From: a virus
Lineage: Duplodnaviria; Caudoviricetes
IMG/VR virus record: IMGVR_UViG_3300028595_000016
Span: 1 to 55,790 of that record
DNA length: 55,790 nt
Reading direction: 5' to 3' (one strand)
In this document: positions 37,164 to 44,288 of the stretch, one piece after another
Numbering within the stretch: the stretch's first letter is position 1
Layout of the letters: every line of letters starts with the position of its first letter
Program-made: the position numbers and the translations under genes
The notes under the pieces: generated by a model
Databases searched by the model: none
What the model saw: the letters and a program-made list of their open reading frames with translations, nothing else
Told to the model about the DNA's origin: nothing

Positions 37164-38221
37164 CGGGCACCTCCGCCAGCTGCAGCGAACGCCTCGAGTT
37201 CCTGGCGCCTGCGGTCGGTGTCAGCGGCGATGAGCGCACGGTTGCGCGCTTGGCGCCGTTTCAGGGCTTCGGCGGTTTCTGCTTCATCCGGGTGTGGCTT
37301 CGTCGGACGCCTCGATGGGTGCTGCCAGTCGCCGCAGATGGCCGACGAGAGCGCCTTGCGCCAATTCACGAGGCTTCGCGTGTCGGACTGGTCGGCCTGA
37401 TGCTTGGCCACGAATTTCGTCGTCAGTGCGTCGACAGCCCATTGCTCGAGCCCCGGGAGGCTCGTCTGGAGCGTAGCAGCCTGGTCGCTGGTGAGCCGGA
37501 GGTCGGCAGGGCACGGGACCTTGGTCGTGGACGGCGCGACAGGCTCGGAATGTGGTGTGACCTGTTGCTCGCCCTTGCCGCTGCTGCTGCCGACGGCGTC
37601 GCTCGCGCGCGCGACTGCTGCGGCAGCAGCAGTATTTCTCTTCTCTTCTCTTCTTTTCTTTTCTAGCGGACTTTCCGCGGAATGGCCGCGGACTGTCCGC
37701 GGACTGTCCGCGGACGTGTCCAGGTCAACTTGCTCGGTGCCGGCGGCAGCACGAGCCTTTTCAGATGCGCGCCGTTTAGCCTTTCTTTCCGCGTCTTTCG
37801 TGCGAGATCGCTGCGCTTCGACGAAGTTGGTGATCCAGATTCTTCCAGTCTCAGTGTCAAGCGAGAGGTAGCCGTCGGCCAGAAGGAACTGGATTCCGAC
37901 CCTGGTCATCTCGCGCTCGAAGTCGGCCGGCGCGAGCACGTCCACGAGTGCGTCCACGACTCGTCCGGACGTTGTCCGGACGTTGTCCGCTCCTGTCCGG
38001 GACGTGTCCGGGTTTGTCCGCGGACGTGTCCGCGGACTGTCCGCGGACGTGTCCAGGGACGAAACCATCTCATGTCCAGAGTGGACCCGCAGCAGCGTCC
38101 CGTCGTCTTCGGCCAGAACGAGCAGGTAGTACCGCAGCCCTCGGACGTGGACGGGAGCGCTCTTGTTCGTGAGAGACTCTTTCTTGTAGGCCTTGACCCA
38201 TCCCTCTCGCTGGAAATTCAT
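37160..38221 (-). CDS. Replication initiator (lambda O-like layout)
   Basis: Upstream of dnaB; contains internal iterons and an EKKRREEKR purine tract. Confidence 0.65.
   Translation of the reverse strand: MNFQREGWVKAYKKESLTNKSAPVHVRGLRYYLLVLAEDDGTLLRVHSGHEMVSSLDTSADSPRTRPRTNPDTSRTGADNVRTTSGRVVDALVDVLAPADFEREMTRVGIQFLLADGYLSLDTETGRIWITNFVEAQRSRTKDAERKAKRRASEKARAAAGTEQVDLDTSADSPRTVRGHSAESPLEKKRREEKRNTAAAAAVARASDAVGSSSGKGEQQVTPHSEPVAPSTTKVPCPADLRLTSDQAATLQTSLPGLEQWAVDALTTKFVAKHQADQSDTRSLVNWRKALSSAICGDWQHPSRRPTKPHPDEAETAEALKRRQARNRALIAADTDRRRQELEAFAAAGGGAR
37631..38054. repeat. Putative replication origin: GTCCGCGGAC iteron clusters plus pyrimidine/AT-rich tract
   Basis: Palindrome at 37695, 37706, 38016, 38028 and 38039, with variants at 11-12 bp spacing; TTCTC tract at 37635-37664. 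Confidence 0.7.
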
Positions 38222-40696: not shown

Positions 40697-40713
40697 CGTC
40701 TCCTCTTTTGAGT

Positions 40714-40758
40714 TGGCCCCACCCCGGGACTCGAACCCGGGAGTATGCCGTTGTGGGG
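40714..40758 (-). ncRNA. Armless tRNA-like minihelix (acceptor stem, T-arm, CCA)
   Basis: CCCCAC-N11-CCCGGG-TTCGAGT-CCCGGG-GTGGGG-CCA on the minus strand. Confidence 0.55.
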
Positions 40759-40772
40759 TGGATCGTACTTGC

Positions 40773-41447
40773 TGTCATTCGGTCGTCGAGGTTGGCTCGC
40801 TCCGAGCCGTTGTCATTCGTTCAGCATTTTTGGCTCGCTCATGATCGTTGTCATTCGTTCAGCATCGATGGCTCGCTCGGTCTCGATGTCATTCGTTCAG
40901 CTACCATGGCTCGCTCATGGCCATTGTCATTCGTTCTCGGTTTTTGGCTCGCTCATGGCCGTTGTCATTCGTTCCGGACTTTTGGCTCGCTCATGGCCGT
41001 TGTCATTCGTTCCGGACTTTTGGCTCGCTTGGCGCGCTTGTCATTCGGTTGTGGAGGTTGGCTCGCTCGCAATACGTGTCATTCGTTCGCCGCTTTTGGC
41101 TCGCTCTCACGCGATGTCATTCGTTCAAAGCACCTGGCTCGCTTCCCACTTATGTCATTCGTTCCGGAATCGTGGCTCGCTTCGCTAGGATGTCATTCGT
41201 TTCTGCCCGATGGCTCGCTCTCGGGCGTTGCCATTCGTTCGTAGGGCATGGCTCGCTCTCCGATCATGTCATTCGTTCCGCGAGTATGGCGCGCTTCCGC
41301 GCAATGTCATTCGTTCGCAGTATTTGGCTAGCTTCTCGCCCGTGTCATTCGTTCGAGGGAACTGGCTCGCTCATCCTTCATGTCATTCGTTCGAGCTGAA
41401 TGGCTCGCTCTCGGCTAATGTCATTCGTTCGGGTGCCCTGGCTCACT
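40773..41447 (-). repeat. TIGR-like dual-repeat guide array, 18 x 38 bp, downstream of the Tas gene
   Basis: Plus-strand TGTCATTCGTT-N9-TGGCTCGCT-N9 with exact 38-bp period from 40773 to 41419 and variable 9-nt spacers. Confidence 0.9.
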
Positions 41448-42477
41448 CCGCCGCTTCAGCGACGCTGATCTTTCCTGGGTCACCGACAAGCTCGAGAGCT
41501 TCCTCGACTGTCAGCATCCTCGGCTCGTCAACCTGGATCCGCCGCCCGCCGTGGGCATACCCCAGCTTCGCCGCGTGGTAGTCGGGCCACACCGGGAGGC
41601 CTTCAAGTGCGCGCCAGACAACGTACACGTCCTCGAGCAGCAGACGCATGGCCTTGTGCCATCCTGCGTTGTCCGCGAAGCCTTGGGCCGATACCGCCTT
41701 CCCTGCGGGCTCTCCGTCATGCAAGGGGACGATCTTCCCCTTCTCCACGCGGTCGCTCGAGAGGATGCGGTGCTTGTGATCCTCCCATGCTTGCAGGTAT
41801 TTCGATGTGCACGTTCGATCGATGTGGGGCATCTTGGGCTTGACACCTTCTTCCTTGGCAGCTTCTCGGATCCGCTTCCGCTCGGCTCTCATCTCCGGTG
41901 TGAGTGATGCCGAAGATGCATTCTTCCGCATGGCGGAAGCAGCCTGATGGAGCCTCGTGCGGAGGTCGGAGTTGTAGGCAGAGACTCGGCCCGACTCGCG
42001 TCTCTCGAGTCGGCCATTGATGACGGCCAGCCCGCAGTAGCGGTGGAGCTTGCTCGGCTTGTCCGCCTTGCGGATGTCCACGGTGGACACTAGGTAGGCA
42101 CTCACCACAGGGCCTAAACCAAAGACGTGCCGCAGGAACACGTCATAGATTGGGATCGGTCTCAGTGCCCGATCAATTCGCCGCTCCAGCGCGCCGATCT
42201 GAAGGTCGGCCGCCTTGTTCCCGTTCAAAAACGTGTGGCGGACATCGTCTGGCAACGGGCAAGGGATCTTGTCGCCCTTCTTGAGCCCTCGCGCTGGGAT
42301 GTCCTGGCGGGCCTCCTTGTCCTTGCACATGTTCTCGATGGCGACGCGGGCCCTCGTCGCAGCGCGATGCTGATTGACGAGGAGTCTCAACTCGAGGATG
42401 GGGTCGTCGGTGCACGGCAGCTCATCTCGTGCCTTGCGTGTCCGCTTCATGGTTCGCTCTAGTTTTTTCAGTGTCAT
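41443..42477 (-). CDS. Nop-domain RNA-binding protein, IS110-related, TasA-like (no RuvC/HNH domain seen)
   Basis: Coiled coil followed by VFGLGPVVSAYLV...KPSKLHRYCGL...YNSDLRTRL and C-terminal WRALEGLP; no N-terminal DEDD domain; flanked by arrays. Confidence 0.8.
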   Translation of the reverse strand: MTLKKLERTMKRTRKARDELPCTDDPILELRLLVNQHRAATRARVAIENMCKDKEARQDIPARGLKKGDKIPCPLPDDVRHTFLNGNKAADLQIGALERRIDRALRPIPIYDVFLRHVFGLGPVVSAYLVSTVDIRKADKPSKLHRYCGLAVINGRLERRESGRVSAYNSDLRTRLHQAASAMRKNASSASLTPEMRAERKRIREAAKEEGVKPKMPHIDRTCTSKYLQAWEDHKHRILSSDRVEKGKIVPLHDGEPAGKAVSAQGFADNAGWHKAMRLLLEDVYVVWRALEGLPVWPDYHAAKLGYAHGGRRIQVDEPRMLTVEEALELVGDPGKISVAEAAE

Positions 42478-42500
42478 CGTTCTGTTCCGTTTCGTTGGGT

Positions 42501-42931
42501 TGGATCGCTCTCGCGTCATGTCATTCGTTCGGGGCGACTGGCTCGCTCGATCACTGTGTCATTCGTTCGCCACGGTTGGCTCGCTCATTCTCGTTGTCAT
42601 TCGTTCCGAAGCGATGGCTCGCTCCTCAACGTTGTCATTCGTTCTCAGTCGATGGCTCGCTTTACCCTTCTGTCATTCGTTCGAGCAGCATGGCTCGCTT
42701 GGACAATGTGTCATTCGCTCTGCCATTGTGGCCCGCTTTTCGCGTGTGTCATTCGTTCAGGGATGGTGGCTAGCTCGAGGCCGATGTCATTCGTTCCGGC
42801 GTTCTGGCTCGCTCGACGGACATGTCATTCGTTCCGAATGCATGGCTCGCTCACTGGTATTGTCATTCGTTCGTTCGTGATGCTTGGCTCGCTCTGAACC
42901 ATTGTCATTCGTTCGGTGGGCATAGCTCGCT
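42501..42931 (-). repeat. TIGR-like dual-repeat guide array, 11 units, upstream of the Tas gene
   Basis: Same repeats at 42519 + 38n up to 42861, then 42903 (one 4-nt CGTT duplication). Confidence 0.9.
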
Positions 42932-43246
42932 CGGGATGGGCTCATCCTTGCGTCCAGACGACTTTCTGAGTTCTCTTTCCAGAACGGCGCGCTGGGAGGC
43001 GCACAAGCGTTCAATGTGGTCCACCTGTCGGGCGATGTTCGCTCGGAATGCGCGCTCCGGGTTGTCGCGCCATTCCTTGTTAAGGACCGCGCTCTTGACG
43101 CCGGCGGGAATCCCAGTGACGAGCCACTTGGCCCCTTCTGGGGTCTTCTTGCGCTCGAGCAGGTAATCCCTGCAGGTCCACTCCTGCCGTCCACCGTACC
43201 GGGTGAACTGGAACTCTCCGACCAGGATTGTGTCAGGAAGCTTCAC
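42905..43246 (-). CDS. Hypothetical protein
   Basis: Coupled ORF; its stop codon lies inside the first array repeat. Confidence 0.55.
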   Translation of the reverse strand: MKLPDTILVGEFQFTRYGGRQEWTCRDYLLERKKTPEGAKWLVTGIPAGVKSAVLNKEWRDNPERAFRANIARQVDHIERLCASQRAVLERELRKSSGRKDEPIPSELCPPNE

Positions 43247-43881
43247 AGCAGCCCCCCTGGGTTTGCATCCAGAGCGCGACCCGGAACATCCTTGTGCGAG
43301 CGATGCTGTTGCCTGCCGCCACGCAACGCTGCGATCTCTCGGTCCTTCTCGGCGATCTCTCGGTCCTTCTCCAGCACGATGGCCTCGAGCTCCTGGATTC
43401 GCCGGTCCTTCGCTGATGGCTGTCGTGGATTCTTGCCCACGACGCGAGCGATGATCGGGTCAGCCTGGTTAGGCGTCAGCGGTGCCCCGGTGGCTTGGTA
43501 CCCACAGATCAGCTCACGCTTGATCTCATCTAGATGCACTGGGTCAAGCCTCATCCCGCCGATCCGGCACACCACGTCGTGGTGGATATTCTTGCGGACC
43601 GCCGAGTTGGCCTTCGGGGAATACCCAAGCGCCACCAGCCCCTGGTATCTCCGCTTGAACCATGACTCGTTTCGGCCGGCAGCGAACCCAACCCTCTTCA
43701 ACCACCCGGACACTGACAGTCCGTCAGACTCCTCGCGGAAGGAGTCCCAATTGGATGCCAGTGCCATCACCTCGCACGCTGCGAAGTTTGGCCCAACGTC
43801 GGAATCAGCCATCAGCTTGGACAGCCTCGCGCCGATCTGCTCTAGGTTCTCTGTCGTCATCTCACCGTTCCTTATGTCCAA
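43243..43881 (-). CDS. Hypothetical protein with C-terminal coiled coil
   Basis: Coupled ORF; EKDREIA duplicated. Confidence 0.55.
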   Translation of the reverse strand: MDIRNGEMTTENLEQIGARLSKLMADSDVGPNFAACEVMALASNWDSFREESDGLSVSGWLKRVGFAAGRNESWFKRRYQGLVALGYSPKANSAVRKNIHHDVVCRIGGMRLDPVHLDEIKRELICGYQATGAPLTPNQADPIIARVVGKNPRQPSAKDRRIQELEAIVLEKDREIAEKDREIAALRGGRQQHRSHKDVPGRALDANPGGLL

Positions 43882-44288
43882 ACTTCAATCACAACTCGCC
43901 CGTCCCCGGGAGGTGCATACACCCACTCCTGTACGACCTCCGCGTGCTTCGGAGAGTCGTCCACGAGATAGCCTAGTCGATGCGTGCGAGCCCTTCCGCG
44001 GGGGCAGCACAGCATGTCGACCGGGCGCTTTGCCCAGTCGCTCCACCTGTCTGGCTGCACGCTCGAGTGCCGAACGCAGTGGACGATGGGGCGACCGACC
44101 AGCGCCGCCCGACGCGGGAGCACCTGGGATGCCATCGCCTTCCAGAGTGCCTCTTTCTCCGCGGCGTGCTGCCACCTCTGGGTGTGGCGCGTCCTGTTGC
44201 TCGGCGGGCAGAGGTCAAGCGGTAGGACGACGCGGCAGTGGCGCTCTGTCCCGACCCGCTGGCCATCGATCCACAGCTCGAGGCTCAC
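43872..44288 (-). CDS. RusA-like Holliday junction resolvase
   Basis: PPSN, PD...K..VD.L and GYLVDDS motifs; terminal RVVIEV. Confidence 0.6.
   Translation of the reverse strand: MSLELWIDGQRVGTERHCRVVLPLDLCPPSNRTRHTQRWQHAAEKEALWKAMASQVLPRRAALVGRPIVHCVRHSSVQPDRWSDWAKRPVDMLCCPRGRARTHRLGYLVDDSPKHAEVVQEWVYAPPGDGRVVIEVWT

Follow-up and report, generated by a model that had tools for sequence, protein, structure and literature searches.

A probable dual-repeat TIGR-TasA system with 38-nucleotide units in an early-gene operon of a tailed phage

Results

Two TIGR arrays flank a single tas gene

The DNA analysed here is the complete IMG/VR record IMGVR_UViG_3300028595_000016, a soil-type contig of a tailed phage (55,790 bp, 63.7% G+C) that is classed as linear and estimated to be ~80% complete; the window is this whole contig at its full length. 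Its minus strand carries tasA, a gene for a predicted Tas-type Nop protein, with arrays of two short alternating repeats on both sides that run in the sense of the gene (Table 1). There is very little doubt in our minds that the locus is a TIGR-TasA system. This architecture, dual-repeat and dual-spacer arrays beside a Tas-type Nop protein, had been proposed from the sequence in an original prediction and was borne out by the analyses described below.

Table 1. Coordinates of the features of the TIGR-TasA locus and its surroundings.
Feature	Position	Strand	Remarks
GC-rich hairpin	40712..40758	-	at the usual terminator position of related arrays; no T-run
Final spacer B (8 nt) followed by GATCCA	40759..40772	-	GATCCA taken as a shortened closing edge repeat, by analogy with Faure et al., 2025
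Downstream TIGR array	40773..41448	-	18 units of 38 nt each; 18 edge-type and 18 loop-type repeats
tasA, 344-aa solo Nop-domain Tas protein (coiled coil and Nop)	41443..42477	-	assigned by sequence and fold matches
Upstream TIGR array	42501..42932	-	11 units; 12 edge-type and 11 loop-type repeats
Closing edge repeat of the upstream array, AGCGATCCA	42509-42501	-	
113-aa open reading frame	42905..43246	-	between partner gene and upstream array
Conserved partner gene, 212 aa (family core ~165 aa)	43243..43881	-	upstream of tasA

The prediction of 29 units, 18 downstream and 11 upstream of tasA, was correct, while the strictness claimed for the 38-bp period has to be relaxed. The start-to-start spacing is 38 nucleotides (nt) in 28 of the 29 units; upstream unit 2 (42852-42893, minus strand) measures 42 nt, because a tandem duplication of 4 nt doubles GAAC at the start of its loop repeat. 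The guide of this unit may be mis-spaced and non-functional. Each unit is composed of an edge repeat of 10 nt (RAGCGAGCCA), eight variable positions, a loop repeat of 12 nt (GAACGAATGACA) and eight further variable positions. Column statistics were calculated over 27 units, with the 42-nt unit and the last unit, which is not followed by an edge repeat, set aside. None of the eight variable columns of either spacer exceeds 0.34 bit. The base preceding the loop repeat is G in 25 of the 27 units, and the base preceding the edge repeat is G in 19 and A in eight. Since the last base of each of the N9 spacers proposed earlier is thus a conserved purine, the repeats comprise 10 and 12 nt and each variable part is shortened to 8 nt. 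The same repeat boundaries were found in independent arrays with identical repeats on other contigs. Both repeats, edge GAG-CGAG-CCA and loop GAA-CGAATG-ACA, begin with GA and close with CA; they differ in the third base (G/A) and in the base just before the final CA (C/A), so the pseudo-symmetry seen in the original prediction is real.

Three pattern counts were compared with expectation. The pattern loop-N8-edge with up to two mismatches gave 28 matches, all on the minus strand, against none in 100 dinucleotide-preserving shuffles, and edge-N8-loop with up to three mismatches gave 30 rows, two of which overlap on the 42-nt unit, against none in the shuffles. The 12-mer GAACGAATGACA with at most one mismatch was matched 28 times, with 0.2 matches expected, and never outside the two arrays. 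A chance origin of the arrays is excluded. Each counted copy is on the minus strand within one of the two arrays, and none of the three counts points to scattered guide units elsewhere in the contig. Tandem Repeats Finder reported periods of 38/76/114 at 40792-41431 and 42498-42872, and no Rfam family reached its own threshold in the contig. An assignment as a CRISPR array was rejected, as this would need one repeat of ~25-36 nt with spacers of similar size, whereas two repeats of 10 and 12 nt and spacers of 8 nt are present here.

Units 12 and 13 of the downstream array (40916-41029, minus strand) are identical, and unit 14 differs from them at 5 of the 16 variable bases. Over all units, four pairs with at most 5 mismatches of 16 and one exact duplicate were counted, against 0.16 in shuffles; spacer A of the 42-nt unit entered this comparison as the last 8 of its 12 bases, which is the wrong register. 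The unit duplication is local to the downstream array and recent. Tandem duplication as a general mode of array growth was rejected, for adjacent units are almost all unrelated in eight related arrays.

Gene and array are fused at the 3' end of tasA, where the first edge repeat of the downstream array contains the stop codon TGA (41445-41443; AGTGAGCCA). At the other end of the gene, an edge-like decamer with one mismatch (GAGCGAACCA, 42450-42459, minus strand) stands out of phase among the first codons and runs into the third ATG; it is possibly the remnant of an older array end. Moreover, four sigma-70-like promoter matches were counted between 40826 and 42752 on the minus strand (0.9 +/- 0.9 in shuffles), and in each of them the loop repeat supplies the -35 hexamer, ATGACA. 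Judged by these matches, transcription starts internal to the array are possible. A look-up of sequencing runs covering 40700-43900 returned none.

TasA resembles Tas proteins without their nuclease domains

The gene and the IS110/Nop motifs of its product are as originally described. The tasA start codon is supported by an N-terminal M-x-x-L-K-K-L-E motif common to the homologues. In Pfam the protein matches PF02371 alone (E 1.4e-5), and Pfam and PHROGs label it only as an IS110-family transposase C-terminal domain. By sequence, the best matches among solved structures are TasR (9mty, E 1.1e-13) and TasH (21kl, E 9.7e-5). An AlphaFold2 model was built from an alignment of 82 out of 89 proteins (P0063, P0068, P0078 and P0086-P0089 were dropped as partial or weak) and reached a mean predicted local distance difference test (pLDDT) of 92.3 and a predicted template modelling score (pTM) of 0.87. 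In Foldseek, TasH and TasR chains take all of the first ten places for this model (E 3e-9 to 5e-8), and IS621 comes next. VIA-align ranked TasH 9vzx_A first (Z 19.8, root-mean-square deviation (rmsd) 3.9, 235 aligned residues, model 24-335 against chain 65-306) and TasR 9mty_B next (Z 18.0, rmsd 2.4, 197 aligned residues, model 28-335 against chain 112-321), above IS110-family recombinases (Z 13.2-13.5) and archaeal Nop5 (Z 6.4-6.8). The structural comparison with Nop, IS110 and Tas proteins that had been suggested as a check thus sides with the Tas proteins.

The fold alignments start at TasA residues 23-28, at TasH residues 64-66 and at TasR residue 112, skip the HNH and RuvC parts, and leave only ~22-27 N-terminal residues of TasA unmatched. 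Because the structural match begins that early, neither a RuvC nor an HNH domain can fit into TasA. The DEDD domain of IS110 transposases (DEDD_Tnp_IS110, PF01548) was matched neither in TasA nor anywhere in the contig at E <=1, and the fold match to IS621 spans residues 124-321 of the IS621 chain only. The absence of DEDD, RuvC and HNH that had been read from the sequence agrees with these results. On sequence and model, the gene product is identified as TasA, a Tas-type Nop protein without a nuclease domain.

In SpTasH, Y289 and H296 are the catalytic residues that process the guide precursor (PMC13421893). HMMER aligned SpTasH Y289 with Tyr300 of TasA (344-aa numbering), which belongs to a conserved block VWPSY-x-AAKLGY-x-HGG; all 82 aligned sequences have H309, and at least 90% have Y300. 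We infer that H309 is equivalent to SpTasH H296, and the C-terminal Tyr/His processing loop of dual-repeat systems appears from this alignment to be kept in TasA.

The 38-nt unit is a trait of a TasA clade

We fetched 61 loci with homologous tas genes. Their dual-repeat arrays have periods of 36-38 nt and the same orientation as tas. Relatives at roughly 31-68% protein identity are accompanied by arrays of 37 or 38 nt, and those at <=30% identity mostly by arrays of 36 nt, e.g. GAGCGAGCCA / GAGAAAACCA. The 38-nt unit is hence as real as originally claimed, but it is a trait of the whole clade and not a special variant of one locus. The two extra bases sit in the loop repeat, where AT inserted into the edge sequence GAGCGA-GCCA gives GAACGAATGACA. 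In one relative the edge repeat GAGCGAGCGA stands against the loop repeat GAGCGAATGCGA, and relatives within the clade keep both repeats alike, e.g. GAGTGAACGA and GAGCGAATGCGA.

Dual-repeat guides have been described as 'uniform' and 'fixed' at 36 nt, a length that was tied to the reach of the Tyr/His loop (Xu et al., 2026, 10.64898/2026.09.09.750476), and TIGR repeats of 8-12 nt are allowed (Faure et al., 2025, PMC12045711). As the 12-nt loop repeat falls within the latter range, 36 nt is a typical and not a defining length. Nor is the geometric argument for the Tyr/His cut violated, because the edge repeat that bears the cut stays at 10 nt. Neither '38-nt' nor '38 nt' occurs in the main texts of the two papers. 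Arrays on both sides of tas, which had likewise been taken for a variant feature, are already described (Faure et al., 2025; Xu et al., 2026).

The exact repeat pair was found on two other IMG/VR contigs only. No spacer is in common with the identical-repeat arrays on other contigs, the best pair having 6 mismatches of 16. Classical terminators lie 3' of some related arrays. The sense orientation of the arrays is supported, because the arrays of the relatives lie on the tas strand and some of them end in such terminators.

The sequence of the hairpin that follows the downstream array resembles the T-arm and the acceptor 3' strand of a tRNA and ends with CCA. ARAGORN called no tRNA at this hairpin, its fold is not better than that of shuffled sequences (z 0.83), and after the arrays of related loci the T-loop motif is absent, ordinary terminators being present there instead. 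An attachment-site reading of the tRNA-like hairpin was dropped in view of the missing tRNA call, the ordinary fold and the fact that neither an integrase nor a serine recombinase was found in the contig.

A conserved partner gene accompanies the clade

With a family profile, the partner gene was detected in the contig and in 31 of the fetched loci, in each case 5' of tas and in the same orientation. When the loci that extend 900 nt or more beyond the 5' end of tas were sorted by unit length, the partner was present in 22 of 23 loci with 37/38-nt arrays, in none of 17 with 36-nt arrays and in 7 of 8 whose arrays are missing or unclear (two loci with only two 36-nt units were counted under 'other'); near-duplicate contigs of one clade are included, so that these counts describe a lineage and not independent events. 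The family is large, with 309 cluster representatives at E <=0.001 among 1.84 billion proteins, and nearly all of the 150 representatives listed are stand-alone proteins of ~150-230 aa.

By sequence, the partner matched nothing in Pfam or PHROGs, also when profiles were used. Two profiles, one with 18 members (the contig protein and 17 of 21 matched loci, the near-duplicates L024, L005, L034 and L049 being dropped) and one with 72 members (the contig protein and 71 of the 150 listed representatives), found no match among PDB sequences, and hence no ParB or KorB. A language-model look-up pointed weakly to clusters for plasmid partition and DUF3102, but the ParB_N, HTH_ParB and DUF3102 models match nothing in the contig. 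A model of the partner (mean pLDDT 86.9) was searched against 48,161 chains, and ParB-type DNA-binding domains occupy four of the six top rows, namely Spo0J 1vz0 (Z 6.4), ParB-parS 6s6h (Z 6.1) and KorB 1r71 and 8qa8 (Z 5.8 and 5.3); these values lie below the tool's own level for more than a common helical arrangement. SopB scored Z 4.4-4.5, the unrelated Rubisco factor Raf1 equalled the ParB level (Z 6.2-6.3), and Foldseek returned nothing at E <=0.001. The model thus hints weakly at a resemblance to the ParB/KorB DNA-binding domain, and the partner may be the published TasParB. When TasA and the partner were modelled as a complex, the prediction returned 'no answer' (score 0.00; run without controls), which carries no weight for or against binding.

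These observations bear on a refinement of the TIGR-TasA interpretation, in which the partner is the working part and TasA with its guides brings it to a DNA site; there it might bridge or spread like ParB and KorB, with silencing or partition as the outcome. Its close association with the 37/38-nt arrays, its place upstream of tas on the same strand, the size of its family and the ParB-type domains among its fold matches speak for this idea, as does the report of a ParB-like 'tasParB' in operons with tasA, sometimes with arrays in between (Faure et al., 2025). Against it stand the low Z values with Raf1 at the same level, the empty Foldseek result, the lack of any sequence link to ParB and the dependence among the counted loci. 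All in all we consider the refinement unlikely, albeit credible. That this TasA branch is a distinct two-protein subtype, with 37-38-nt guides and an obligatory DNA-binding subunit of ~170 aa that is ParB/KorB-like, is a speculation to which we lend rather little credence; in such a subtype, the longer guides may reflect one extra base pair closing the loop repeat. If true, the partner would turn RNA-guided recognition into more than a roadblock, e.g. into bridging, spreading or partition, and the two additional nucleotides in the loop, with an edge repeat still of 10 nt, would explain the departure from a 'fixed 36 nt'.

The ParB-like neighbour might also suggest a partition site, with the repeats acting as DNA sites (a centromere or iterons for the partner); alternatively, the gene could be a decayed IS110 transposase with leftover repeats, in line with the only label that Pfam and PHROGs give to TasA. 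Yet the same alternating repeats stand beside tas in the 17 loci that have 36-nt arrays and no partner, among solved structures the closest are those of Tas proteins in complex with RNAs from such arrays, and no DEDD domain is present in the contig. Furthermore, residues that are invariant across the family and nearly perfect repeats argue against decay. We regard both versions as extremely improbable.

Several details of this region were noted in passing. Within the partner gene, a perfect 21-bp tandem duplication (43331-43371) doubles the heptad EKDREIA of the C-terminal coiled coil, at a place where most of its relatives have a CxxC motif and then a short helix. The start of the 113-aa open reading frame (ORF) overlaps the partner stop codon (GTGA), its own stop codon (TGA) is supplied by the first loop repeat of the upstream array, and no counterpart of it was found in the related loci. 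In one related locus (L033) the partner ORF ends (735) 6 nt past the start of the upstream array (730). Many partner ORFs of related loci end with glutamate, which fits a fusion of gene end and array start where the edge repeat is GAGTGA....

Guides find no target above controls

All 29 guides were searched in both half-site geometries (reverse complement of A with B, and A with reverse complement of B), as the original prediction had proposed for adjacent spacer pairs. With 8 or 9 nt per spacer, no guide matched the 55.8-kb contig with masked arrays at <=2 mismatches; controls with permuted partners gave on average 3.2 matches at two mismatches and 0.2 at one for 8 nt per spacer. In the 61 tas loci (437,188 bases) one match with one mismatch was found (control mean 1.6), and in 82 further phage loci (1,028,131 bases) again one match with one mismatch (control mean 3.25), spacer A of the 42-nt unit being represented in this last search by the last 8 of its 12 bases, in the wrong register. 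The proposed spacer-pair search thus gave no target above the permuted-partner controls, in the contig or in the phage loci.

One might suppose that the guides serve the phage itself, as an RNA-guided repressor of its lytic programme. The position of the locus in the early/replication operon beside an XRE-type regulator would suit such a role, and control of the viral life cycle is one of the possible functions named by Xu et al. (2026). Regulation of the phage's own genes through near-perfect sites is nevertheless unlikely, because none of the 29 guides matches the contig, from which about a fifth of the genome is possibly missing, and we give this explanation a very low probability.

The locus lies in an early/replication operon

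On one side of the contig are the genes for terminase, portal, head protease, tail sheath and tape measure proteins, and on the other those for DnaB, an SNF2-type helicase, a DNA methyltransferase, RecE/RecT-like proteins and an XRE-type regulator. The tasA locus belongs to the latter, and all genes around it are on the minus strand. The portal protein is most similar to its counterpart in Myxococcus phage Mx4, with 36.5% identity across 61% of the protein, and a search of 185,579 species genomes found a single relative of TasA, which lies in a genome bin of Polyangiaceae. A host in Myxococcota is plausible. A portal search of IMG/VR yielded no close relative of the phage, and a helicase search no relatives beyond ~50% identity. 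Likewise, no match was obtained by tblastn of TasA and the partner against 50,697 phage records or by megablast of 25 kb of the contig against the phage database, searches from which the contig's own record was possibly excluded.

Besides, several arrays of 11-nt direct repeats (GCGGACTGTCC ~5 times, GTCCGGGACGT ~9 times) occur at 37636-38061 inside a 353-aa ORF that has no family match and lies directly upstream of the DnaB-like helicase gene. They look like an iteron-type replication origin within an initiator gene.

Discussion

Proposed mode of action

Our proposal, to which we give a probability of roughly 0.8, is that a tailed phage, probably one of Myxococcota, carries here within its early/replication operon a dual-repeat TIGR-TasA system whose guides direct a non-cutting block of the target. 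Both arrays and tasA would be transcribed jointly on the minus strand; co-transcription is indicated because the stop codons of tasA and of the 113-aa ORF lie in array repeats and the neighbouring genes are all on the minus strand. In the systems studied so far, both repeats of a unit are bound by a dimer of Tas, which cuts the precursor within the edge repeats; of the two strands at an adjacent site, one then pairs with spacer A and the other with spacer B (Faure et al., 2025; Xu et al., 2026; PMC13421893; Guan et al., 2026). By analogy, a TasA dimer would bind the precursor at an edge and a loop repeat, and its conserved Tyr/His loop would cut inside each edge repeat. This would release 29 guides of ~38 nt, each made up of half an edge repeat, the 8-nt spacer A, the 12-nt loop repeat, the 8-nt spacer B and another half edge repeat. 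Each guide may then place spacer A on one DNA strand and spacer B on the other at an adjacent site of 16-18 bp. Binding without cutting is expected because TasA has no nuclease domain, and the bound complex would block transcription or replication of the target. TasA and catalytically dead TasR were reported to repress transcription in a guide-dependent manner, reversibly in the case of TasA (Xu et al., 2026); the programmable DNA binding and repression that we propose by analogy, in line with the original prediction, is the activity shown there for another TasA. We surmise that the targets lie outside the phage itself, with DNA of the host or competing mobile elements as the most likely places.

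Several observations weigh against this proposal. The downstream array is not followed by a terminator with a T-run. The unit measures 38 nt, in contrast to the 36 nt of Xu et al. (2026). According to Faure et al. (2025), the positions of box C and box D are paired with one another and as a rule covary between edge and loop repeat, whereas here the loop repeat has A...A where the edge repeat has G...C; this placement of box D at the start and box C at the end of the repeats is our own, by analogy with TaTasR. H309 lies two residues further from KLG than SpTasH H296 does (KLGY-x-H versus KLGH). Finally, no guide target rises above the controls in the phage DNA or in ~1.47 Mb of related and other phage loci; the natural targets and roles of TIGR-Tas systems are in general still unknown according to Xu et al. 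(2026).

TIGR-Tas systems are compact RNA-guided DNA binders that work free of a protospacer-adjacent motif and are of interest as tools. The locus adds a clean and large example, with 29 guides on a nearly complete phage contig, probably from a phage of Myxococcota, and it adds evidence that dual-repeat guides are not always 36 nt long. It also supports the view that one large TasA branch always occurs with a second, uncharacterised protein. The picture of how TIGR-Tas works is unchanged by it: the system is of a published kind and stands out in that its guides have 38 nt and a partner gene is conserved, two features that belong to the clade.

Comparison with known systems

The closest counterparts are the dual-repeat TIGR-TasA systems, e.g. 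FpTIGR of Flavonifractor plautii (Faure et al., Science 2025, PMC12045711), with which the phage locus has in common the solo Nop-domain Tas protein, arrays that flank tas and in which edge and loop repeats alternate and each unit has two short spacers, the location on a phage, and a shortened closing edge repeat followed by a hairpin. In contrast to the FpTIGR type, the unit here has 38 instead of 36 nt owing to the 12-nt loop repeat (GAA-C-GAAT-G-ACA), the variable parts amount to 8+8 nt with a fixed purine after each spacer, and loop and edge repeat differ at the G...C positions of the edge. The tasParB-tasA operons of the same study likewise have a small same-strand gene upstream, an array between the genes and another one after tasA. 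The partner described here differs from tasParB in that it lacks a ParB sequence signal, shows only a weak fold likeness (Z 5.3-6.4) and has no N-terminal CTPase-type ParB domain. Faure et al. (2025) is the only literature we found that joins tigRNA, TasA and ParB.

For MbTasA, CsTasR and PateTasR, guide-dependent DNA binding that is independent of a nuclease has been described (Xu et al., 2026), and this is, by analogy, the activity to be expected of the phage TasA. PateTasR and CsTasR, whose structures were solved in the same work, are stem-loop binders, and in the account given there all stem-loop clades are without the Tyr/His loop; the phage TasA, in contrast, appears to keep this loop and has plain dual-repeat arrays. 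Like SpTasH of Salicola phage CGphi29 and TaTasR (9vzx, 9w03, 21kl, 9mty), it has a coiled-coil and Nop fold (Z 18-19.8) and, in a C-terminal loop, a Tyr and a His. These two proteins carry HNH or RuvC and cut DNA, whereas the phage protein is predicted to have neither domain, and its identity to the solved Tas proteins is only 17-26%. With the IS110-family recombinases IS621 and ISCro4 it has the RNA-binding domain in common (PF02371; Z 13.2-13.5), but it is set apart from them by the missing DEDD catalytic domain and by tandem arrays in the place of a bridge RNA.

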